Below are positions 1-46,202 of a stretch of DNA of 60,237 nucleotides, piece after piece; the stretch's first letter is position 1; every line of letters starts with the position of its first letter. The notes below the pieces were generated by a model, which searched no databases, was not told the DNA's origin, and saw only the letters and a list, made by a program, of their open reading frames with translations. The position numbers and the translations under genes are program-made. The stretch lies in the IMG/VR virus record IMGVR_UViG_3300025571_000003, positions 1 to 60,237 of that record. The stretch is one strand, 5' to 3'. This stretch comes from a virus (Duplodnaviria > Caudoviricetes).

Positions 1-195
1 CGGAACGATATCTCCCTTGAGACCCTTGATCTGCCCCTCGCTCAAATTCGTTTTGCGAGCGGCATTCTTGCCGCCGATGAAGGCACCCGAGTTTGCCGAC
101 CGGATAAACGATCCCCCGAATACGGCGCTGAGATATTTGCATAATTCGCGCTCGTAGCCCGAGCCCTTGTTTTTGGATTTGCTTCCGCCAGCCAT
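1..195 (-). CDS. Holliday junction resolvase (Hjc-like PD-(D/E)xK nuclease), 5' part only, runs off window
   Basis: Own translation from ATG at 195: MAGGSKSKNKGSGYERELCKYL...FIRSANSGAFIGG...KGDIVP. The KG..ERE and GDI motifs are typical of phage Hjc-type resolvases. TAAATA late box upstream at 226-231. Confidence 0.75.
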   Translation of the reverse strand, partial: MAGGSKSKNKGSGYERELCKYLSAVFGGSFIRSANSGAFIGGKNAARKTNLSEGQIKGLKGDIVP

Positions 196-283
196 TTTGG
201 TATAACAAGAAAATCAATATATACGTATTTATTTTCCGGGCGGGCTTGTGGTCCGTCCGTAATCATTCATTGAGGGATTGCAT

Positions 284-1030
284 ATGATTAGTAATAACAA
301 TGTCGGCGCGTGGTCATATCAGCTGACACCGACGCCGCGCGAAGTAAATCAGTTTCGACAGATTATCAAGGAAGAGACCCGTTATTACAACGCGGTCGTA
401 TCGGGTCTTGCCGGTCCCATTCGGTCAATCGGCGACACGATCATAAAGCTTACAGGCCACTGGGAGGAGATGTTTGGCCTCGCCGCAGCACTCAGCGTGA
501 ATCCTCTCCGGGATGAGACCGCCCGCGCGAGTTTTGCCAAGTACGCTCCGCTGATCGAGAGCGCCGACGAGCGTACGAAGCTCGTGTTCGATGTCGTTAC
601 GGCGCCTGCCTATTTGGCGGCCCTCGTCCGTCGGGCGATTGCGATTGAGGCGCTTCGTGCGGCTCGCGACCAGGTCACCGCTATGCGTGCGACTGTCAAT
701 TCTGACACTCAGGTCTACCGGAACCTTGTGACGACGCTCACACCCTATGAGCCGGGCCAGAAGCGTCACATCCAGATTCCGGTCAAGGCCTGCACCATCA
801 ACGATGCTCAGGACGGCAAGATCGCGATCAAGATACCCTACCTGCGTGATCCGATAACGGTCTCAGCTCCACCGGTGTCGTGGAACCTGATGATCATCAA
901 GGATGATGACACGCGCTGGACGATGACACTCCTGCGCGAGAAGTCCATGTATCTTATGGGACGTGCTGATGCTCCGGGTCTGCGCAAGCGCCGCAAGAAG
1001 GCGCAGCGCCGAACCTCGGAGAAGGCTTGA
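284..1030 (+). CDS. TnpB-derived protein (HTH/REC/WED-like region, no RuvC)
   Basis: N-terminus AWSYQLTPT..EV..F......RYYNAV resembles the IS605 TnpB AYKYRLYPT...R..YN motif. C-terminal IKIPYL...NLMIIKDDDTRWTMTLL resembles TnpB WED strands. The protein stops where RuvC-I would begin. Confidence 0.5.
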   Translation: MISNNNVGAWSYQLTPTPREVNQFRQIIKEETRYYNAVVSGLAGPIRSIGDTIIKLTGHWEEMFGLAAALSVNPLRDETARASFAKYAPLIESADERTKLVFDVVTAPAYLAALVRRAIAIEALRAARDQVTAMRATVNSDTQVYRNLVTTLTPYEPGQKRHIQIPVKACTINDAQDGKIAIKIPYLRDPITVSAPPVSWNLMIIKDDDTRWTMTLLREKSMYLMGRADAPGLRKRRKKAQRRTSEKA

Positions 1031-1473
1031 TGGCAGTCAGCATCGCGCAGGAGATTCCCCGTCGCTACCATGACAGGCTCAACAAGCCCTACCTGCTGGA
1101 GGACGGGGAGTATCTAGACCCCATCCGGGTCGAGTACCGCATCAGGGACAAGTTCGTCTTCCGCAAGATCGTCGATGCCCTGTTCGAGGGCATCACCCGC
1201 GTGGAGCTCATGAAGCGCTACCGGAAGATCGAGCGCACGGACGAGAACTGCATCAACCTGCTCGCGAGCATGGCGGAGGAGAAGTACGGGTTTCCGGCGC
1301 CGATCGCGAGGAAATTCGTTGAAAGGCGCATCCACTTCCTGATGCGGGAAACGAATGAGACGGTGGCGCGCACCGTCGCGCCGACGGCTCAGGACCTTGC
1401 ACGTGAAGATCGGGTGAGGACTCTAAAACGGATGCGAAAGTGGAGGAGGGATTACTCCCACCGCAATCTGTAG
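1030..1473 (+). CDS. hypothetical protein
   Basis: TGATG stop/start overlap with the upstream gene. Phage-like codon usage. Confidence 0.7.
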   Translation: MAVSIAQEIPRRYHDRLNKPYLLEDGEYLDPIRVEYRIRDKFVFRKIVDALFEGITRVELMKRYRKIERTDENCINLLASMAEEKYGFPAPIARKFVERRIHFLMRETNETVARTVAPTAQDLAREDRVRTLKRMRKWRRDYSHRNL

Positions 1474-1796
1474 GCGAGGGCAGATTCCGTATTCTCGAAG
1501 CTGAAACCGTCCTCGTTCATGCACCAGAGACCAGTCGTGTTTTCGACGATCCACATGACGCGAAGCGCGATTTCACGGTCGCGGATCAGAGGTATCTCGA
1601 AGACATGGGGTTGTGTCTTGCTGGTGTAGCGAGGGAGCTGGTCGAGACGATGGACACCCCTCAGGAACTCCGGAAGGGGTCCATCGTGTTCGATGACCAT
1701 CAGGCGGATGAGCCTGTTCACATGTGAAATGGTCGCGCCGAGGAACCTTTCCACGTCCGTGAGGTGGGAGCTGATGGAAGCAACTTCCGCCTTCAT
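1452..1796 (-). CDS. hypothetical protein with C-terminal F..(E/D)A.A(F/Y).L.W motif
   Basis: ATG at 1796 overlaps the upstream stop. Ends GFSFENTESALAYRLRWE, a motif shared with other ORFs here. Confidence 0.65.
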   Translation of the reverse strand: MKAEVASISSHLTDVERFLGATISHVNRLIRLMVIEHDGPLPEFLRGVHRLDQLPRYTSKTQPHVFEIPLIRDREIALRVMWIVENTTGLWCMNEDGFSFENTESALAYRLRWE

Positions 1797-2026
1797 AGGA
1801 GGGGTATCCTCGTTTTTTCCGTCATGCGGAGCCGTTCGTCGATTTGCTTCATGATATCCTTTCGCTCGACGGGCGAAAGAGTCCATGCCTCTTCTCGTGT
1901 GAGACCACCGCGCATATGCCACAGAATCGTGTATATGTGGCGCCGCAGTTCCTTCTGCTCCGCGTAGAGTTCACCGTACAGCTCCTGAACTTCCGCTTCC
2001 GTCTTGCAGTTCAGGAGCCTTGCCCG
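1793..2026 (-). CDS. gp51-like baseplate/tail assembly domain, probably expressed by -1 frameshift from the upstream gene
   Basis: ILWHMRGGLTREEAWTLSPVER motif. No convincing RBS or start. Frame is -1 relative to the gp26-like gene at TTTTTTC. Confidence 0.65.
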   Translation of the reverse strand, partial: RARLLNCKTEAEVQELYGELYAEQKELRRHIYTILWHMRGGLTREEAWTLSPVERKDIMKQIDERLRMTEKTRIPLL

Positions 2027-2032
2027 AAAAAA
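1981..2032 (-). promoter_or_regulatory. -1 programmed ribosomal frameshift signal (slippery T_TTT_TTC, 7-nt spacer, 11-bp hairpin)
   Basis: Minus strand reads AG T TTT TTC GGGCAAG GCTCCTGAACT-(16 nt)-AGTTCAGGAGC. Confidence 0.75.
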
Positions 2033-2904
2033 CTGGATGGATTGAACTCCAGCTGGACATCCCATGTGTGATTGCACTTCTGGCACACCGCTTCCAGTGA
2101 GCGATTGATGCCTCCCTCGTTGAGTTCCTGAACACCCTTCTGGATCGCTTTTGACCACGACGCGGAGACTTTGTCCAGAAATTCTCGGATCATCCTCTTG
2201 TCGGTGACGGTGACATCCGGCAGGACGATCGAGACGATGCTGTCGGCAAGCACCTCGGTATTGAGATCGGCAAGCTTTCGATAGCTCTGGTGCAGAACCT
2301 TCTGACGCTCATCTTCATCCAGTTGCTCGGCGTACTGCGCGCGGCGTGTCTCCTGGAAGGCGGCCATCGCGATCTTGGCGCCGGTGCGGATGTCGTGCGG
2401 CCGAAGGTATACGACGGCCTCCGCATCGAGACGGATGTGCTTTCCTCCAGGAATTTCCTTCATCGTGCTCAGGACGGCCGGGATGTTGCAGGTGAATGAA
2501 TTCTGGTGGCCGCAGGAAGGGCAGGAGGCTTCAACATCCATGTCGTTTCCCGACGTAGCCGCCCGGATGGCGAGCATGAGTACATCGAGGTCGGGCAATG
2601 AGACGTATTCAGGAGCCCTGATCGACGGGACGCACGAACGAATAAGCTCCTCAATGGCGTAGCCGCTCATCAGCGCATCAGGCGACTTCAGAAGCATTTC
2701 ATCGGCTGCCCTCATCGGGAACACGGGTAGCTCACCTGTTGCGGTGAACTCTATCGTTCCGGGGGGCATGTAGGCGCCCTTGGTCGGGATCGTGATGTGA
2801 ACACCCGGCACGCGGAAGTACTTCGCAAGTGGGTTGGTGTTGGTCGGGGCCGGACGTGCGGCAGGCTGGCTGAACATTTCACTCTCGTCGAAATCGTCGA
2901 TCAT
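2011..2904 (-). CDS. baseplate hub assembly / tail chaperone protein (T4 gp26-like)
   Basis: NPLAKYFR..P.G..Y, M.AADE.LLK.PDALM.G, LLAIR.A..G, two CxxC pairs (CPSC, CQKC), C-terminal SSFF. Confidence 0.7.
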   Translation of the reverse strand: MIDDFDESEMFSQPAARPAPTNTNPLAKYFRVPGVHITIPTKGAYMPPGTIEFTATGELPVFPMRAADEMLLKSPDALMSGYAIEELIRSCVPSIRAPEYVSLPDLDVLMLAIRAATSGNDMDVEASCPSCGHQNSFTCNIPAVLSTMKEIPGGKHIRLDAEAVVYLRPHDIRTGAKIAMAAFQETRRAQYAEQLDEDERQKVLHQSYRKLADLNTEVLADSIVSIVLPDVTVTDKRMIREFLDKVSASWSKAIQKGVQELNEGGINRSLEAVCQKCNHTWDVQLEFNPSSFFGQGS

Positions 2905-2930
2905 AATTCCCTGCTTAGAAGTTATATGCG

Positions 2931-2974
2931 TATTTATCTATTCAATAACCGACGACTCATCCGTCGCGTAAATA
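2931..2974. promoter_or_regulatory. divergent pair of T4-like late promoter boxes (TAAATA)
   Basis: TAAATA on - at 2931-2936 and on + at 2969-2974, between the divergent gp26-like and tape-measure-like genes. Confidence 0.6.
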
Positions 2975-2999
2975 CAACACGGCGCAACGGAAAAAGTCC

Positions 3000-5834
3000 A
3001 TGGAACGCGAAGACGAAATAATCGACGGCCTTAAAAAGGTAGCAGAAAACCTGAAGAGGGTTAGCGGTATCTTTGCAGATGTCGCGAAGGAGAGTTACGA
3101 CAACTCGACTGCCGGTGCCCGTTTGCGTCGGGACATGTTCAGCAACTATGAGAGCATGGACGAGGCCACCGGCAAGATGGCGGCTACCATCCAGAAGGCT
3201 GCCAAGGCTTCTGGTCATCTCGACCGCGTCAACCAGGGCGTCGTCAACGCCATCAGCATGCTCGGCAAGGACGTGAACTTCGCGGCCGAGGCTCTTCAGG
3301 GCTTCAGCAGGACCATTCTGGGCGGCTTCCTGGGCGGTGCCTTCGTTGCAGGCATCATCGGCTGGACGAAGAGTTTGACCGCCACCTATCGCGAAATGAC
3401 CGAGTACGGTCAGACCTTCTCGGGCGGCATCATGGAGATGGCCCGCACGGCTTACCTCGGAAACATGTCGCTCGACGAATTCACCCGCGTCGTCAAGGAG
3501 CACTCGGTCACACTCGCGCAGATCGCGGGCAATAGCGAAGCCTTCGCGAAGCTCTCGGCGGATGTCCGCAAGGCGACCGAGAGCATGGGCCTGTACGGTT
3601 ACACCATCGAGGGCATGAACGACATGATGCTCCAACAGCTCGAAGTCATGCGCCTCAACGGCATCCTGGAGAACTTCGACCATCGCCGGGTGTCGGAGAA
3701 CATGCAGACGTTGGCGCGGGACACGTCGTTCCTCTCGACGGCGTTCGGCAAGAGCCGCAGGGAAATCCTTGAGACGAGCAAGCGCGCGCAGATGGACAGC
3801 CGCTACATGGCGTTGATGCTGTCCAAGGATGCCAAGGAGCGACTGTCCGAGCAGGAAAGGTACGTATCGGCTATCAATTTCATGGCCTCTCAGGCCAATG
3901 AAGCCGGACAAATCCTCTCCACGTTCCTGGCCCAGACCATAGGCTCGGGTGGAATAGCGGCCTACACGGACGCCTTCAGGAACCTCTTTAGCGGCATGCT
4001 TCCGGAGGCCGCCTTCGCCATGGAGAGGTTCGTCCAGGACATCGAGGCGGGCATCCCTAAGGACCAGAAGTTTGAGCGCTATCATGCGTTCATCAAGGAG
4101 TTCGACGCCATGTTCAGCCCGGATGTCATGGCGCGGCTCAGAACGCATGCGATGGACGAAACCACTCGCCAGCAAGCTGAATCGCTGATTGCCTTTGCTG
4201 CTGAGATCAAGAATGCGGCCAACCGCGACATCAAGGAGGCGAAGAAGCAGGCTGATCTGTCCAGCCACTACACGAACAATGCTCTCAAGGCAGCCGAGGT
4301 GTGGAGCCGCTTCACGACCGCGATCCAGTATTCCTTCACCCCGCTGATCCTCGGGCCGCTTGAAGCTTTCACGAAGTCTCTCGAACGGCTCAATAGCACC
4401 GGCATGATCGACAAGATCGCGGACTCGGCCACACGCCTGGTCGGACGCATCGAGGACTGGGTGAGCTCCTTGAACACCGAGGATTCCATGCTGCGAATAC
4501 AGAAGTTCGCAGAGCAGGTCATCGGTTCATTCTCCAAGCTCATGACTGTCGGCTCGGCGACCATGGAAGCGCTGTTCGGGCCGAACGGAATCCTCACTGC
4601 CCTCGGCCGTGTGGCGATGACCCTGTCTCCGATGCTGATCGGTATCGCCGACGGCCTGCTCTCGGCGGCCAACTTCCTTCTGGACATCTTCAACAGTTTC
4701 ACCTCGGCCCTGGGGTCGTTTGGCGGCAGCGTCAATATCGCGGCCGATACGGCAAACAAGTTCGCTGACATGCTGAGGCTGGCGGGCGAGTACGGTACGT
4801 ACGCCCTGCTTGGTATAATCGCCTTCAAGAAGCTTAGCGGCTTCGTCCAGTCCGTGGCGAACTGGACCGGACTGCGCACGATCTCGATGGCCGCCACTGC
4901 GGTCTACGTCTCGGGAAAGACGATCTTCGACAGCGTTGGCAAGCGCTTTGGCGGTCGTGACAAGGATGATGGGGATGGTAGTCCGCGCGGCCGGGGAGGG
5001 CGCATGCGCCGGGTGGCAGGAAAGATAGCGGCTGTAGGCGGCACTCTCGCCGGTTCGGCGATGATGTACGGCTCCGACTTCATCTCCACCGTGTCGGATG
5101 CGCTGTACGACACGGGATCGAAGGTCGCCAAAGGAGCAAGCGAGGCCGCTACAGCCGCCGCGACGAAGGCGTCGGAGATCGCCAGCAAGGGGGCGGAGGC
5201 TACAGCAAAGGCTTCCCAGTCGCTCTTCACCAAGGGGCTTGGCACACTCGGGCTCTTCGTGGAGGCAATCAACGCCACCAAGGACCTCCATGACCTGTAC
5301 CAGCGCAAACAATCCAATGAACTGACGGAGCAGCAGTTCGCAGCAAAGGTGGTTGAGATCATCACCTCCAAGGTCTCCGGAGCCGCAGGCGCGTATGCGC
5401 TCGGAATACTCGGAGCCGGTGCCGGATCGTTGATCGCTCCCGGCCTGGGATCGACGGTCGGTGGCATCGCGGGCGGTGTCGCGGGATTCCTTGGTGGGGA
5501 GTACATCGGCGAACGGATTGCTGAAGCCATCGTGAAGCAGCTGGCGACACCAGCCAATCCGCCCACAGAAAAGATTGCGGCTACGCCTGATGCCGGTGCC
5601 CTGACAAAGGATGACCTGGCTCGGAGTCAGAAGGCCTTCGAGGACAAATTGGCGAATTGGGATCAAAACCCCGGAGGTGTTTCGATGGGCGATGTCTTGG
5701 CGAAACTCTCCTCCATCGAGCAGGCCATCAGGGACCAGACTGCTATCGAGGCCCAGCTGAGCAACCGCGACTATCGCGAGGCTCAGAAAAACATGCACCT
5801 GCTTAGCAATAGTTTGTCCAGAATTAGCCAGTGA
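3000..5834 (+). CDS. tail tape-measure-like protein
   Basis: 944 aa, helical Ala/Leu-rich, Gly-rich hydrophobic segments (GAGAGSLIAPGLGSTVGGIAGG). Lies next to the tail chaperone-like gene and the head module. Confidence 0.6.
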   Translation: MEREDEIIDGLKKVAENLKRVSGIFADVAKESYDNSTAGARLRRDMFSNYESMDEATGKMAATIQKAAKASGHLDRVNQGVVNAISMLGKDVNFAAEALQGFSRTILGGFLGGAFVAGIIGWTKSLTATYREMTEYGQTFSGGIMEMARTAYLGNMSLDEFTRVVKEHSVTLAQIAGNSEAFAKLSADVRKATESMGLYGYTIEGMNDMMLQQLEVMRLNGILENFDHRRVSENMQTLARDTSFLSTAFGKSRREILETSKRAQMDSRYMALMLSKDAKERLSEQERYVSAINFMASQANEAGQILSTFLAQTIGSGGIAAYTDAFRNLFSGMLPEAAFAMERFVQDIEAGIPKDQKFERYHAFIKEFDAMFSPDVMARLRTHAMDETTRQQAESLIAFAAEIKNAANRDIKEAKKQADLSSHYTNNALKAAEVWSRFTTAIQYSFTPLILGPLEAFTKSLERLNSTGMIDKIADSATRLVGRIEDWVSSLNTEDSMLRIQKFAEQVIGSFSKLMTVGSATMEALFGPNGILTALGRVAMTLSPMLIGIADGLLSAANFLLDIFNSFTSALGSFGGSVNIAADTANKFADMLRLAGEYGTYALLGIIAFKKLSGFVQSVANWTGLRTISMAATAVYVSGKTIFDSVGKRFGGRDKDDGDGSPRGRGGRMRRVAGKIAAVGGTLAGSAMMYGSDFISTVSDALYDTGSKVAKGASEAATAAATKASEIASKGAEATAKASQSLFTKGLGTLGLFVEAINATKDLHDLYQRKQSNELTEQQFAAKVVEIITSKVSGAAGAYALGILGAGAGSLIAPGLGSTVGGIAGGVAGFLGGEYIGERIAEAIVKQLATPANPPTEKIAATPDAGALTKDDLARSQKAFEDKLANWDQNPGGVSMGDVLAKLSSIEQAIRDQTAIEAQLSNRDYREAQKNMHLLSNSLSRISQ

Positions 5835-5881
5835 GTGGTATACTGGCTTAAATAGTTTAGCGATTTTATAGTAGGGTGTTA

Positions 5882-7657
5882 ATGTCCTGGAAGAAATATT
5901 TTAGGGTACAGAAAACCTCTGTTGTGCCTGATCAGCTCTCCTCCGTTCTTGCGTCTACGGCGGAAACAGCTGCGAGATATGCTTCTCCTCTTCCGCATGT
6001 CTACACAGGTCATCCAAGCCGTCTTCAGAGATACTACCAGTATGATGACATGGATCGGGACTCGGACATCAACGCCGCCCTCGATACCATCGCTGACTTC
6101 TGCACCCAGTCTGAGGAACAGACCGAGGAGCCGCTGCGCCTCAATTTCGTGAAGGAGGCGTCGGAGACCGAGGTCAGAATTCTTAACTCGCTCCTCAACA
6201 AGTGGGTCTCGATCAACCAGTTCCGCTCGAAGCTCTGGTATATCTTCCGCAAGACGATCAAGTATGGAGACGCATTTTTCCTTCGCGATCCGGAGACTGG
6301 CGAGTGGTATTGGCTCGATGAGTTCTCGGTCGTGATGGTCAAAGTAGATGAAAGTGAGAAGACGCCGACCGAGTACATAGTTCGAAATCTCGACTTCAAT
6401 CGGGCCGCCAAGTTCGCCACCAAGCGCGTCGATCCGAGTGAGTACCATCACGGGCTGGCGACGATCACCGCAACGAGCGCCCGTCCGGTCGGTACGATGA
6501 CCGGATCACCCAACTTCGCGATGATCGGCTCCCATATCGACCAGCGGAGCCTCAGAAACCAGACCAATAATAATGCCAACGAGTTGCAGGTCATCGACGC
6601 CGAGCACGTCATCCATCTGTCCCTGTCGGTCGGCCTCGACATCAATTGGCCCTTCGGTGCATCGATCCTCGAACCAATCTACAAGACCTTCCGCCAGAAG
6701 GAGCTGCTCGAAGACGCCATCATCATCTATCGCGTCCAGAGAGCACCCGAGCGCCGCATCTTCTACATCGACGTTGGCTCAATGCAGGGCGCGCGGGCCA
6801 AGGCCCACATCCAGCAGATCAAGAACGAAATCCATCAGCGCCGCATTCCCAACAAGACAGGCGCCGGTGGATCGATCCTCGACACCGCCTACAACCCGCT
6901 GAGCATGATGGAGGACTACTTCTTCGCCCAGACGGCGGAAGGGCGAGGCTCCAAAGTCGAGACGCTTCCTGGTGGAGACAACCTGGGCGAGATCGGGGAC
7001 CTCGACTATTTCACCCGCAAGCTTGCGCGAGGTCTCAGGATTCCGCCGTCCTACCTGTCGCTGACCGATGAGGGCGGCGCCATCTACAACGATGGACGGG
7101 TGGGCCAAGCCCTCATCCAGGAATTCCGCTTCAACAAGTTCTGCATGCGTCTTCAGAACCTTCTGGCCCCGGCGTTCGACGCAGACTTCAAGAGATTCGT
7201 GCGTGAGAACGGCGTCCAGATCGACGAGGCGATCTACTACGTAACGTTCTACCCGCCGCAGAACTTCGCCAAGTACCGCCAGATCGAGGTCGATGCCCAG
7301 CAGGTCGGAGTCTATATGCAGGTCGCGGAAAACAAGCGTCTTTCCGAGCGCTTCAAGCTGAAGCGTTTCCTCGGCCTGAGCGAGGACGAAATCCTGGAGA
7401 ACGAGCGCCTTTGGGCGATGGAAAACGCCGAGAGAATCAAGGCTGCCACGGGTGCCACTCCAGCCGAGACCGAGCACGACACGGACCTCTCGTCGGTCGG
7501 CATCAGGACGAACGACTCGTTCAGAAGCATGTCGATGTCCACGCCTCCGTCTCAGAACGGACCGCTGGATGAACTGGAGGACTTCAACCCACTCGGTGCG
7601 TTCGGCAATGCGCCTGGCGAACCGCCACCTTCCCCCAACGAGACGCCGGAACAGTAA
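5882..7657 (+). CDS. portal protein (T4 gp20-like)
   Basis: LLEDAIIIYRVQRAPERRIFYIDVG, EDYFF..GRGSKVETLPGG.NLGEI.D..YF, and RGL.IP.S motifs. Confidence 0.95.
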   Translation: MSWKKYFRVQKTSVVPDQLSSVLASTAETAARYASPLPHVYTGHPSRLQRYYQYDDMDRDSDINAALDTIADFCTQSEEQTEEPLRLNFVKEASETEVRILNSLLNKWVSINQFRSKLWYIFRKTIKYGDAFFLRDPETGEWYWLDEFSVVMVKVDESEKTPTEYIVRNLDFNRAAKFATKRVDPSEYHHGLATITATSARPVGTMTGSPNFAMIGSHIDQRSLRNQTNNNANELQVIDAEHVIHLSLSVGLDINWPFGASILEPIYKTFRQKELLEDAIIIYRVQRAPERRIFYIDVGSMQGARAKAHIQQIKNEIHQRRIPNKTGAGGSILDTAYNPLSMMEDYFFAQTAEGRGSKVETLPGGDNLGEIGDLDYFTRKLARGLRIPPSYLSLTDEGGAIYNDGRVGQALIQEFRFNKFCMRLQNLLAPAFDADFKRFVRENGVQIDEAIYYVTFYPPQNFAKYRQIEVDAQQVGVYMQVAENKRLSERFKLKRFLGLSEDEILENERLWAMENAERIKAATGATPAETEHDTDLSSVGIRTNDSFRSMSMSTPPSQNGPLDELEDFNPLGAFGNAPGEPPPSPNETPEQ

Positions 7658-7668
7658 AGGAGACAGAG

Positions 7669-7917
7669 ATGCGCCTACTTGAGTTCACTGATGAGGTCGT
7701 TGCAACCGGGCACTACGACCCGGCCGAGGATAGGATGAACACCCGCAATTTGGGTGATACGCGAAAGCCCGTCCTGACGCTGCGGAAGCTCAACAAACTG
7801 AAGAAAATGAGAGCCGTCCGCCAGCTTGAGGCTCTCAAGAGGCAGGACTTGATGGCCGTCATGTACGGGGATGCTGACTCCGATCGAGGAAGAATGGGAG
7901 GCGGCTTTAGTTTTTGA
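7669..7917 (+). CDS. small basic head-module protein
   Basis: AGGAG RBS. DTRKPVLTL..LNKL.KMR motif. Directly after the portal gene. Confidence 0.8.
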   Translation: MRLLEFTDEVVATGHYDPAEDRMNTRNLGDTRKPVLTLRKLNKLKKMRAVRQLEALKRQDLMAVMYGDADSDRGRMGGGFSF

Positions 7918-7919
7918 GG

Positions 7920-7944
7920 AAGGCGGCTTTGGGCCGCCTTTTTT
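7920..7944 (+). terminator. rho-independent terminator
   Basis: AAGGCGGC-TTTGG-GCCGCCTT followed by a T-run. Confidence 0.8.
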
Positions 7945-8063
7945 ATTATCGACAGTATAGAAAAACAGCTCAAAAACCACCCTTATCTAGGGTATTTCTC
8001 CGCGTAGCAATAAATAACAACAGATGCAATGGCATCCGAGCAACCAAATGTGGAGAAATACCT

Positions 8064-9047
8064 ATGCGTTCCATTCTTGAGAAAGCGCTGATTCACCTTA
8101 TCAATGAGGAGAAGGAGCAGGCGGAAGCGCTGTTCCACAAATTCATTGTCGAGCGCGCGCGTCAGGTCCACGAGTCTCTTCGCAATGAGGACGACGACAT
8201 CGTGGATGACATCGACGACATCGTCGCCGACGAGATGTTCACCGAGGAAGACCTCCGTGGACTGGAGGACGACGAAGAGAACGGCGTCGATGGTGAAGAA
8301 GATGAGGGCGCCGAGGAGGGTGCTGAGGATCGCGAGGAAGAGGTCTCGGCCGATGAAGAGGACGACGACCTTGAGGACGACGACCTTGAGGACGACGCCG
8401 AGAAGGTCGCTGACGATCTCGACATCGACGTTGAGGACGCCAGCGAGGACGACGACGAGGACGAGATTTCCGATCCTGAGGCAGAAGAGCGCATCGCTCG
8501 TCTTGAGGATCAGCTGGAGAAGCTGACTCAGGAGTTCGAGGAGCTGATGGCTGCCGAACAGGCAGAGGAAGAGGCCGACGAGGAAGAGGAAGAGGAAGAG
8601 GACGAGGACGAGGAAGAGGAAGGCGAGCTCGATCCTGAGCTGTCCGACGAGGAGGCTGAAGAGATTGCCGACACCGTCGAGGACGACATGCAGGACGAGG
8701 TCCGTGAGTCCGAGGAGGACCTTGAGGACTTCGAGGGTCTGGCCGAGTCCGCCCTGAGCGATCTTGAGAAGGTCAACGTCGAGAACATTGACGGCAAGGA
8801 AGTCGGCAAGGGCAGGATCATCGACCGCAATACCCGTTCGGCCGTTCCCGGCAAAAAGGCCGATCCGAAAAATGCCAGGCCAGTTGCCATTAAGGGCGAG
8901 ACGCATGTCGGCTTCGACCGCGAGCCCGCTCCCCCGGTCAAGGAAATGAAGAAGCGCCGCAACGTTCGCTCGAAGGCGACGGATGGCATGCAGCCCGTTT
9001 CCAAGGAAGGAGACAAGAAGGCGCTCGTCAATAAGCCGATGTGCTGA
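8064..9047 (+). CDS. highly acidic prohead core/internal scaffold protein
   Basis: GGAGA RBS, TAAATA at 8011-8016. LIN.E...A..LFH...VE.AR..HE N-terminus, very D/E-rich centre. Lies between portal and protease. Confidence 0.7.
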   Translation: MRSILEKALIHLINEEKEQAEALFHKFIVERARQVHESLRNEDDDIVDDIDDIVADEMFTEEDLRGLEDDEENGVDGEEDEGAEEGAEDREEEVSADEEDDDLEDDDLEDDAEKVADDLDIDVEDASEDDDEDEISDPEAEERIARLEDQLEKLTQEFEELMAAEQAEEEADEEEEEEEDEDEEEEGELDPELSDEEAEEIADTVEDDMQDEVRESEEDLEDFEGLAESALSDLEKVNVENIDGKEVGKGRIIDRNTRSAVPGKKADPKNARPVAIKGETHVGFDREPAPPVKEMKKRRNVRSKATDGMQPVSKEGDKKALVNKPMC

Positions 9048-13711: not shown

Positions 13712-14257
13712 TCAGAACCGGTAGTTGACGCCGACCGTGAACAGGTGGTCACGCCCCTTGTTGAACTGGAACGGGGCCACGTAGCGGTACCGGCCGTCGA
13801 TGTCGAGGTTGTCAGTGACGGCATAGCGAAGGCCAGCGCCGAGGACATAGACGCCGATGCGCTCGTTCCACTTCACGTCATCGGCGAAGCGGAAGCCAGC
13901 ACCAGCGAGGACGTAAGGGGTGAAGCGGTCGAAGTCATGCTCCAGGATGGCGTTGGCAGTGAACATGTGGCCGCGCACGCCCTTCTTGCCACCCAGGTAG
14001 TCGTAGTCGGCCTCAAGGCGGACCATGCCGAAGTCATAACCGGCGCCGACACCCACGACGGCGCCCTTTCCGAGAGTTGCGCCGCCAGCGTGACCGGAGA
14101 CATAGAAACCGGTCTTGGCGAAGGTCGGAACGACCATCACGGGACGGGCGGGGAGAGCGGCCCGGTTAGGCACGTCGGCGGCGACGGTCGGCGTGGATGC
14201 GATGGCGACAAATGCGAAAGCGAAAAGGCCAAGCGCGGCCGTAAGAATCTTCTTCAT
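13712..14257 (-). CDS. outer membrane beta-barrel protein (Omp25/RopB-like porin family)
   Basis: Signal peptide MKKILTAALGLFAFAFVA, AADVP...TGFYV.G.AG, TPYVLAGAG, C-terminal VGVNYRF BAM signal. Confidence 0.9.
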   Translation of the reverse strand: MKKILTAALGLFAFAFVAIASTPTVAADVPNRAALPARPVMVVPTFAKTGFYVSGHAGGATLGKGAVVGVGAGYDFGMVRLEADYDYLGGKKGVRGHMFTANAILEHDFDRFTPYVLAGAGFRFADDVKWNERIGVYVLGAGLRYAVTDNLDIDGRYRYVAPFQFNKGRDHLFTVGVNYRF

Positions 14258-14338
14258 GAAATATCCTTCCACTGATTGAAAAAACTCGTTGAACGAGAAT
14301 GCCTCATACATAGCGGAACGCTTGCGTCTATGTCCAGA

Positions 14339-14354
14339 ATTTCGTATACGAAAT
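14339..14354. promoter_or_regulatory. perfect 16-bp palindrome, putative operator/activator site
   Basis: ATTTCGTATACGAAAT just upstream of a TGGACA -35-like hexamer of the porin gene. A related box lies at 30112-30127. Confidence 0.45.
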
Positions 14355-14554
14355 GGCACCTGAGGCGTTCACAGTGATATTTAGGCAACATATTGAGGCA
14401 GAGATAGTGGGCGTATGGGGAATTGTAGGCCGTATATTTTGTCTTGGTGTCGATATGTCCCGACCAAGAAGGAGCATCCACGTAATTCGATAGATGATTC
14501 AGCCCTGGTCGGTCTGACGACATCCTGTCTGACGCAGCGTGATGAGCGGAAGGA

Positions 14555-19038: not shown

Positions 19039-19448
19039 CAGTGCTCATCCTTCTGGTCATCCTGCGCATCGGTGGTCGCGCTTTTCTTCCGGTCATGGAA
19101 ATTGAAATGCCAGACCGTCATCGCCTTTTTGACTTGATCCCGGTACTTGTCCAGGTAGTAGGCGGCAGCGACTGCGTCAGGAACGGCCTCATAGCGGTTC
19201 TTCACGACTGTCCTGTTGAGGATGTCTATGACGACGGAAGCCTCGGCAATATCGTTGTCCGAGATGCGGTCCTTTACATAGGGACGTTCGAAAATATCGA
19301 CCGAGCCCGGCTTCTCGTGCCAACCCTTCTTGCTGGTGTTCACACCCTTGGCCGGTCGGGTGACCGTCGTGACGATGAGGAAGGGTCTGTTGCGAAGATT
19401 CTTGAGGTTTCGCGGGCGATTGTTCTCAGGAGGAATAATAGAATCCAT
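19038..19448 (-). CDS. hypothetical protein
   Basis: TGATG-coupled to the downstream gene. In the groES/clamp-loader operon. Confidence 0.7.
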   Translation of the reverse strand: MDSIIPPENNRPRNLKNLRNRPFLIVTTVTRPAKGVNTSKKGWHEKPGSVDIFERPYVKDRISDNDIAEASVVIDILNRTVVKNRYEAVPDAVAAAYYLDKYRDQVKKAMTVWHFNFHDRKKSATTDAQDDQKDEH

Positions 19449-23252: not shown

Positions 23253-23327
23253 TGGTGCTGATGAGTGGGATCGAACCACCGACCTTCCCCTTACCAAGGG
23301 GATGCACTACCACTGTGCTACATCAGC
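23253..23327 (-). tRNA. tRNA-Thr(GGT)
   Basis: GCTGATG acceptor, anticodon arm TCCCC-TTGGTAA-GGGGA, GTTCGATC T-loop, encoded CCA. Confidence 0.95.
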
Positions 23328-23334
23328 ATTACAA

Positions 23335-23409
23335 TGGTGCTGGATGAGGGATTTGAACCCCCGACCTGTCGCTTACAAGGCGACTGCACTACCGCTGTGC
23401 TAATCCAGC
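23335..23409 (-). tRNA. tRNA-Thr(TGT)
   Basis: GCTGGAT acceptor, anticodon arm GTCGC-CTTGTAA-GCGAC, GTTCAAATC T-loop, encoded CCA. Confidence 0.95.
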
Positions 23410-45301: not shown

Positions 45302-45589
45302 ATGAACGCTCTCAGCTATGAACAGGCGAAGGCTCTGATCGCGGAGGCCGAGCGGACAATGTTTGAAGCTAGCGCTCGACTGAATTCCATTCCCGGCGTC
45401 GGGTCAGGATATGCGGGATTGACGCCGGAGCACGTCCGGTGCTCACCCCAGTACCGCAAGGCAAAAATGGAATTTGACGCGGCATTCGCGAACCTCCGAG
45501 AACTGAATAGCTGGTTCGTCGAAAATTTCGCGAAGGAAATTCGAGCGGAGCGTCGCCGGAAGATGAACATCACGACCGCAGGAGTCTGA
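45302..45589 (+). CDS. hypothetical protein
   Basis: GAGG RBS. GLTP..V..SP.Y..AK..F..AF..LR..N motif. Confidence 0.65.
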   Translation: MNALSYEQAKALIAEAERTMFEASARLNSIPGVGSGYAGLTPEHVRCSPQYRKAKMEFDAAFANLRELNSWFVENFAKEIRAERRRKMNITTAGV

Positions 45590-46202
45590 TAAGACTATCC
45601 AGCTCTCCTTTTGTGATCACGGCATACCCCTGGTCGTTCAGGAAATCGAGAACGACCTGGGGGGTTTTCTCATCCGGAATACGCAACTTCTCGGGAAGTT
45701 GCTCCCACGGCCGCATGAGGGGATGTGTTTTCTCCTTGATCGAGAACTCCGGCCCATAGCGCCAACCAGCCTTTTCCCGCTCTGCCATCCATCGGGCATG
45801 CTCGGCCTGGGCAATGCGGAGACACAGATTCCGGTAATCGTCGCGATCCACTTCAACAACATCGGAGCGCTCGATGGTCTCGACATCGACAGCCGAGGCG
45901 CGAATGGTGAAGTCTAGGTCCTCGTGCTCCTCACTGAATGCGGTGACGATGATCTCGATCTCCGCAGCATTGAGTTCGCGCGACAATGGAATGATGTAGT
46001 GGTGGCTCCCGTCCTGTTTCTCGCGATGGATAAGTGAAACGCTTCTCGGGACGCCGTCACCGTCAGGAATAGTGATAGACCAGCGCGTCCCGGTCGGTGA
46101 ATAGGTGTCCACGCATTTGAACCAATCGGAGACGACTTCCTGCGGAAGCTCGTCCTGCGTCACGAGAGTTATATGGCGATCTATGGCGACAGGTCGGTTC
46201 AT
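45570..46202 (-). CDS. RyR-domain-containing protein
   Basis: IA..EH.RWM.ER...GWRYG......KTHP.M.PW..LPE, the ryanodine-receptor repeat signature. Confidence 0.8.
   Translation of the reverse strand: MNRPVAIDRHITLVTQDELPQEVVSDWFKCVDTYSPTGTRWSITIPDGDGVPRSVSLIHREKQDGSHHYIIPLSRELNAAEIEIIVTAFSEEHEDLDFTIRASAVDVETIERSDVVEVDRDDYRNLCLRIAQAEHARWMAEREKAGWRYGPEFSIKEKTHPLMRPWEQLPEKLRIPDEKTPQVVLDFLNDQGYAVITKGELDSLIRLLRS

Follow-up and report, generated by a model that had tools for sequence, protein, structure and literature searches.

A conserved phage protein of about 250 residues with the predicted fold of a stand-alone TnpB recognition lobe

The DNA examined here is a whole viral contig of 60,237 bases from IMG/VR (record IMGVR_UViG_3300025571_000003; hereafter the window), which is estimated to represent about 16% of the genome of a T4-like phage. 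Near its start lies the gene for P0001, a protein of 248 residues whose predicted structure resembles the recognition lobe (the WED and REC domains) of TnpB, a transposon nuclease and the ancestor of Cas12, and which ends where the nuclease half of TnpB, the RuvC domain, would be expected to begin. A sequence-only reading of the window had proposed a TnpB-like protein truncated before RuvC, and we evaluated this proposal by family searches, structure prediction and examination of the neighboring genes. The features of the locus are collected in Table 1.

The open reading frame (ORF) extends from 278 to 1030 on the plus strand, in agreement with the ORF as it had been proposed, and its likely start is the ATG at 284, with a Shine-Dalgarno (SD) sequence, GAGG (272-275), eight bases ahead of it. 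Its stop codon, TGA at 1028-1030, shares bases with the ATG at 1030 of the next ORF, forming TGATG. GC contents at the three codon positions (GC1-3) are 0.59/0.46/0.69, compared with 0.57/0.40/0.76 for the portal gene, and the four strain variants found within the gene on contigs from other samples (positions 328, 376, 694, and 826) are all third-position and synonymous, which gives small support, since single low-depth contigs may carry errors. Because the codon composition is like that of core genes, 74 protein cluster representatives match the product, and the variants are only synonymous, we conclude that this is a real gene and more than a chance ORF. The strings quoted in the sequence-only reading, AWSYQLTPTPREVNQFRQIIKEETRYYNAVV at the N-terminus, KIAIKIPYLRD...WNLMIIKDDDTRWTMTLLRE further on, and the tail RKRRKKAQRR, are all present in the translation, which contains a single cysteine. 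Contigs from all four RNA-seq-labelled metatranscriptome runs (4/4) cover parts of 247-1909, in a form that cannot reveal transcription, ends or strand, and no evidential weight attaches to the near-empty bin at 135-268 or to contigs ending at 247 and 269.

An exhaustive HMMER search with P0001 over 1.84 billion cluster representatives returned 74 matches at E<=1e-3, 30 at E<=1e-10, and 9 at E<=1e-30, with lengths from 106 to 345 residues; none of the 74 is of TnpB size, the 12 TnpBs used for comparison having 366 to 419 residues. Alignment A1 contains P0001 and 70 relatives (71 rows), after omission of P0003, whose sequence equals that of P0001, and of the short rows P0033, P0074, and P0075. 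Three residues, E31, K160, and Q164, are invariant in A1 (71/71 each), and N36 (69/71) and W200 (64/71) are near-invariant, as are R161, H162, and Y223 (counts in Table 1). An acidic residue occupies position 229 in 70/71 members; the members stop a median of 17 residues beyond it, and the tail following this position has a net charge of at least +3 in 63 of 71. The proteins as a whole are net positive without exception (71/71; median +9). P0001 carries all of the family motifs (E..YYN, KRHxQxP, PY, WN, and Y....D, followed by the basic tail), and fits an unnamed, recognition-lobe-only family of proteins of about 250 residues (range ∼220-345) that end right after the WED barrel. Since the family members of this size all stop at the same place, this is not a fresh truncation; the family is conserved, old and under selection, with a common end point, and is not an insertion sequence (IS) remnant either.

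The family has escaped annotation. P0001 matched nothing in Pfam, PHROGs, NCBIfam, PADLOC, or the PDB sequences, no Pfam or PHROGs family matched the A1 members consistently, and the ten family clusters that were looked up are metagenome-only and either unnamed or labelled 'hypothetical protein'. No match was obtained when five members (P0001, P0004, P0040, P0024, and P0064) were compared by tblastn with 50,697 phage records, nor was any relative found when viral contigs were scanned with P0001, P0004, and alignment A3. A word-index protein search returned only the query for P0001 and three proteins for A1, and the sole match in a metagenome scan was L003, a contig from a nearly identical strain of this phage. 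A scan of genome contigs with P0001 gave a single match of 43 residues, on L018, a contig from a Myxococcales metagenome-assembled genome, which was dismissed, as it falls in a repeated non-family element carrying PGQKRH.

The AlphaFold2 model of P0001 built from the single sequence was useless (predicted local distance difference test score, pLDDT, 44.9), and the model built with A1 reached a pLDDT of 93.6 and a predicted template modelling score (pTM) of 0.90. It comprises a strand at residues 9-14, six helices over 18-138, six strands over 162-217, a loop at 221-230 (pLDDT 96), and a terminal helix at 234-247, and thus shows the arrangement expected of the superfamily, a WED β-barrel of the oligonucleotide/oligosaccharide-binding (OB) type whose strands 1 and 2 are separated by a helical REC domain. 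When the PDB was searched with Foldseek, ISDra2 TnpB headed the ranking (8h1j, E 1.2e-4), ahead of Cas12n, Cas12f, Cas12p, and Fanzor2. In the alignment with ISDra2 TnpB, residues 4-6 of the model pair with TnpB residues 1-2, and the alignment reaches TnpB residue 174. The structural report on ISDra2 TnpB assigns residues 1-12 and 117-176 to WED and 13-116 to REC, with RuvC starting at 185 (PMC10097598). Since the model matches TnpB up to 174 and RuvC begins at 185, the matched part corresponds to the recognition lobe and ends before the nuclease lobe. The C-terminus of P0001 lies 31 residues beyond the last WED strand of the model, and the conserved Y...D segment within this stretch may be what is left of RuvC strand 1, which would relate it to RuvC-I. 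In BFVD, the top matches were A0A345MN37 (280 residues, E 7.4e-13, TM-score 0.71) and A0A6J5KSC0 (269 residues, E 3.3e-6), with TnpB-like 'transposases' of giant viruses and phages next in the ranking; ESM Atlas was uninformative for both P0001 and P0002, the product of the adjoining ORF. The modelling and structure searches therefore support the WED/REC lobe that had been proposed, while the accompanying idea of a recent truncation or domestication is contradicted by the uniform, old family. As grounds for abandoning it, the sequence-only reading had named the lack of a structural match to TnpB WED/REC, or absence from relatives together with signs of neutral decay; there is a structural match, and the family is conserved.

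We found no trace of the remaining parts of a TnpB or of its transposon in the window. The RuvC-type OrfB domain (PF01385) was found neither in P0001, nor in the 71 members, nor in a six-frame search of the window down to E<=10, and PF01797 (TnpA/Y1 transposase) likewise had no window match at E<=10. The TNB zinc finger (PF07282) is absent from P0001 and its family, and the sole match to it in the window, at 19196-19288, scores 15 bits, which is below the cut-off, contains two internal stops, and lies 18 kb away. No terminal repeats frame the gene within 1-2300. The earlier statement that TnpA and IS ends are not evident consequently holds for the window. Of the features of the superfamily, P0001 lacks a RuvC domain with its D-E-D triad, the TNB zinc finger, and significant sequence similarity to TnpB models, and the TnpA and transposon ends that would mark an IS200/IS605 or IS607 element are missing around a gene that sits between conserved phage genes.

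Table 1. Positions of the P0001 gene, its predicted domains and motifs, and the adjoining features in the window
Feature	Position	Strand	Basis
PDDEXK (Holliday-junction-resolvase-like) gene, N-terminal part, divergent	1..195	-	PDDEXK_15 PF24608, E 1.5e-9; phrog_244
Intergenic region between divergent genes, with an A+T-rich stretch, a 5' hairpin at 238-258 (+), and SD GAGG	196..283		sequence
P0001 gene, 248-residue recognition-lobe-only TnpB-like protein (stop codon included)	284..1030	+	
First WED β-strand, residues 9-14, ahead of REC insertion	308..325	+	model secondary structure; alignment to ISDra2 TnpB
Helical REC inserted in WED, residues 18-138, holding E31 and YYN (Y34, Y35, N36)	335..697	+	six model helices; conservation
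KRHxQxP motif, residues 160-166, REC-to-WED junction	761..781	+	K160 71/71, R161 64/71, H162 69/71, Q164 71/71
Six β-strands completing the WED barrel, residues 162-217	767..934	+	strands 162-166, 171-174, 179-183, 191-194, 202-208, 211-217
Conserved Y...D segment beyond the final WED strand, residues 223-229	950..970	+	Y223 70/71; position 229 D in 61, E in 9
Basic C-terminal tail, residues 231-248, predicted helix 234-247	974..1027	+	tail charge in A1; model
P0002, 147-residue ORF, coupled to P0001 by TGATG, unproven candidate partner	1030..1473	+	GC1-3 0.58/0.38/0.83
Convergent 113-residue ORF, last of the hub operon, overlapping the P0002 3' end	1452..1793	-	GC1-3 0.58/0.40/0.73
Unusually structured stretch 3' of the two-gene cassette, possible RNA element, link to the gene unproven	1470..1825		fold scores compared with shuffles

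The gene is carried by a phage with T4-type core genes, those in the window including the portal (PF07230, E 9e-96), a baseplate hub, the Gp23 capsid protein, a clamp loader, a family-B DNA polymerase, a ligase, PhoH, and a thymidine kinase. At the DNA level, its distant relatives include two jumbo phages, Sinorhizobium phage Phosso (469 kb) and Agrobacterium phage Atu_ph07. When Pfam was run on 38 further ORFs of the window, the only polymerase to appear was the family-B enzyme; a TV-Pol polymerase, which may be missing from Pfam, could have escaped this search. P0001 had been described as lying next to a resolvase and among core genes, and this is indeed its setting, with the PDDEXK gene on one side, annotated through phrog_244 as 'RusA-like Holliday junction resolvase', and the baseplate hub and then the T4-type portal on the other. 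The strain contig L003, a 91.9-kb bioreactor metagenome contig, is identical to the window over the P0001 gene (0/747 bases different) and differs at 29 positions over window 1-8382. It holds the PDDEXK gene in full (172 residues, E 1.2e-18), and, together with this gene, its genes upstream of the window start are NaeI-like, Mre11-like, Ros/MucR, DUF1612-HTH, and Rad50-like. The Ros/MucR-family regulator (5228-5686 of L003, plus strand; PF05443, E 3e-54) lies beside the NaeI-like nuclease (3232-3834), the Mre11-like phosphoesterase, and the Rad50-like ATPase, and we take it as a possible pointer to an alphaproteobacterial host.

At the corresponding place, Phosso has an RNase HI gene and two small ORFs instead of P0001, P0002, and the 113-residue ORF, and no match to the A1 profile, while the two phages have in common a backbone of resolvase, small conserved ORF, hub, large protein, and portal. 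The P0001 gene thus occupies a variable island between conserved genes, and its composition is fully phage-like. In the Phosso record (L002), about 1 kb between the resolvase and RNase HI genes (5433-6448), at the position of P0001, is without annotated genes and contains short ORFs only. P0002 matched no family in Pfam, PHROGs, NCBIfam, or PADLOC, and a word-index search returned only P0002 itself; the score for a predicted P0001-P0002 complex was 0.00, which is evidence neither way. An imperfect 21-nucleotide inverted repeat (919-939 and 1043-1063; 81% complementary) straddles the junction between the P0001 stop and the P0002 start, and could gate the coupled translation of the two ORFs. A base change at 1566 in L003 leaves the product of the convergent 113-residue ORF unaltered; this ORF, too, lies within the island missing from Phosso.

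The structured stretch downstream of the two-gene cassette folded better than all of 100 dinucleotide shuffles on either strand (0/100 as good), with z values of -3.47 on the plus and -3.10 on the minus strand. It overlaps a coding ORF and is the site where convergent transcripts of P0002 and the 113-residue ORF would overlap. A sliding fold scan over 150-6000 gave merely moderate z values around the P0001 gene, and the fold of 225-300 upstream of it is only modest (-20.5 kcal/mol, z -1.93). Terminator-like hairpins lie at 1799-1811 on the plus strand, with a T-run, and at 1377-1359 on the minus strand, the counts of promoters and terminators being within the expectation from shuffles, and no Rfam family was matched in 1-2300; we found no RNA partner for P0001.

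Elsewhere in the window, we observed a full-length GOLLD RNA (RF02032; 29168-29617, minus strand; 181 bits, with the gathering score at 150; E 2.5e-49) and two tRNA-Thr genes (GGT and TGT; 23253-23409, minus strand). Also on the minus strand are an ORF with an outer-membrane β-barrel/Opacity-porin domain (13715-14359; PF13505, E 1.4e-11; PF02462, E 3.4e-8) and one with a RyR domain (45573-46202; PF02026, E 2.3e-10).

From the predicted fold and its conservation, we propose that P0001 is probably a stand-alone WED and REC lobe of the TnpB/Cas12/Fanzor superfamily, acting as a nucleic-acid binder that does not cut. The modelled chain is a WED β-barrel that takes up the helical REC domain behind its first strand and is followed by the Y...D segment and the basic tail, and the family would descend from TnpB or share an ancestor with it. 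In ISDra2 TnpB, the duplex bearing the transposon-adjacent motif (TAM) sits in the cleft between WED and REC (PMC10097598). The equivalent cleft of P0001, aided by the basic tail and the overall positive charge, might grip DNA or structured RNA without cutting it, and in this T4-like jumbo phage P0001 would then serve as a factor that binds a particular site or structure in nucleic acid so as to mark, regulate or protect it. Its gene adjoins Rad50- and Mre11-like genes and a resolvase gene, which hints at an involvement in DNA transactions.

Several results weigh against this proposal. The Pfam TnpB models gave zero matches to the 71 A1 members, and hhalign comparison of the family profile with the alignment of 12 TnpBs was not significant (E 0.4, probability 0.15), the best stretch being collinear and N-terminal (query 8-44 on TnpB 5-41, with YYN over vyN) and likewise not significant. 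Compared with the PDB sequences, the A1 profile reached Fanzor1 (9cf0) at only E 0.012, over profile positions 13-95, and the sub-profiles A4 and A2 returned unrelated noise only. By eye, and unscored, the family KRHxQxP at the REC-to-WED junction resembles basic-x-x-Q-S in the 12 aligned TnpBs. The link to TnpB therefore rests on predicted structure, and of the TnpB pattern that had been claimed from the sequence, the structural likeness stands and the sequence likeness does not reach significance. By its predicted structure we class P0001 as a TnpB-type recognition lobe, for which descent from a common ancestor is likely, though not proven; fold convergence, in which a helical insertion into an OB-like barrel came about independently, with no evolutionary or functional tie to TnpB, we regard as quite improbable. 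In addition, the invariant polar residues (E31, K160, H162, Q164, and D/E229) could mark an enzymatic site instead, and, since about 16% of the phage genome is covered, a nuclease half could be encoded elsewhere.

The alternative closest to a non-cutting binder is one in which the binding is RNA-guided, with the lobe loading a guide RNA (from 1470-1825 or from elsewhere in the phage), binding complementary DNA beside a TAM-like motif, and serving as an ultra-small repressor resembling the TldRs, which are nuclease-dead derivatives of TnpB. WED and REC contribute to the heteroduplex channel and TAM cleft of TnpB (PMC10097598), and TldRs, as nuclease-dead, C-terminally truncated TnpBs, still bind in an RNA-guided manner (10.1101/2023.11.30.569447); the strongly folding stretch (z -3.47) directly 3' of the cassette is also in keeping with a guide. 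However, the guide scaffold of ISDra2 TnpB is held jointly by WED and RuvC, with the pseudoknot sandwiched between them (PMC10097598), so that the scaffold requires a surface to which the RuvC half, missing from P0001, contributes, and the candidate stretch folds about equally well on the minus strand, overlaps a coding ORF, and lies in a region with no Rfam match. On balance, guided binding appears unlikely. We are more doubtful still of the widest extension, that P0001 exemplifies a class of widespread, undescribed phage proteins in which the lobe alone is the working module, either as the smallest natural programmable or TAM-reading DNA binder (∼250 residues) or as the free-standing block from which TnpB arose by the addition of RuvC.

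Two further explanations start from the phage context of the gene. As a small, nuclease-free, phage-encoded protein in the shape of the RNA/DNA-binding lobe of a type V effector, and one whose gene lies in a variable island missing from Phosso, P0001 might be an anti-defence decoy, a lobe mimic that soaks up the guide RNAs of host Cas12 or TnpB or joins dimeric Cas12f-like effectors in dead heterodimers. Yet by sequence the family is no longer recognizable as kin of any TnpB or Cas12, which is unexpected for a mimic that has to fit a host partner, and it has invariant motifs of its own and no PADLOC match; we consider a decoy quite improbable. A decaying remnant of an IS200/IS605 element, i.e., a truncated tnpB pseudogene, would account for the end of P0001 at roughly the start of RuvC, and TnpB is common in phages, 429 records of the phage collection having matched an E. 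coli TnpB. Such a remnant is hard to reconcile with a conserved family of uniform length and invariant motifs, with four variants that are all synonymous, with phage-like composition, an SD sequence, and coupling to the next ORF, or with the lack of any RuvC remnant, TnpA, or IS ends, and it is the explanation to which we assign almost no probability. A non-cutting, stand-alone WED and REC lobe is thus the reading that we retain.

If correct, a conserved family consisting of WED and REC only would show that the recognition lobe is a self-sufficient functional unit, would add to what is known to become of the transposon gene that is commonest in prokaryotes, and would provide a candidate reader of DNA (through a TAM-like motif) or RNA of about 250 residues. 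For phage biology, it draws attention to an accessory gene, so far without annotation, that adjoins recombination genes in uncultivated jumbo phages. A literature search over main texts found no paper on a RuvC-less TnpB family consisting of WED and REC only. A Fanzor survey records that candidates lacking RuvC were put aside as possibly partial (PMC10432273), and because they are discarded in this way, such families are easily overlooked.

Compared with the TnpBs of known structure from ISDra2 (8H1J, 8EXA, 8EX9, and 8BF8) and ISFba1 (8IAZ), P0001 lacks the entire nuclease lobe (RuvC, TNB, and the C-terminal domain), as well as significant sequence similarity, TnpA, and IS ends, and its REC domain is longer, with six helices over 18-138 rather than four over 13-116. 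The miniature type V effectors and Fanzor proteins to which its fold is related, AsCas12f (8J12 and 8DZJ), Cas12n (9J09), CasLambda (8DC2), and mimivirus Fanzor2 (9B0L), all have RuvC together with a CRISPR RNA or omegaRNA, whereas neither a CRISPR array nor RuvC is present at P0001. The proteins nearest in size and fold are the viral A0A345MN37 and A0A6J5KSC0, the latter from an uncultured Caudovirales phage, both unnamed and unstudied, which on the basis of their modelled structures probably belong to the P0001 family. Known exaptations of TnpB, namely Cas12, TldR, and inactivated clades, retain at least most of the RuvC scaffold in the accounts consulted (PMC10691335; 10.1101/2023.11.30.569447). 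TldRs are TnpB-derived, non-mobile, and without nuclease activity, as is probably true of P0001, and some are phage-encoded; they keep the TnpB fold and the RNA-binding interface and remain recognizable in sequence, most of RuvC being retained with a dead active site, while P0001 is without any part of RuvC. The sequence-only reading held that TldRs preserve the RuvC fold, which is not always so, as the TldR preprint reports C-terminal truncations ablating RuvC and zinc-finger parts in many of them (10.1101/2023.11.30.569447). Since many TldRs are already truncated in these parts, the P0001 family is the extreme end of a known trend, and TldRs and P0001 are likely to share a role in binding rather than cutting.
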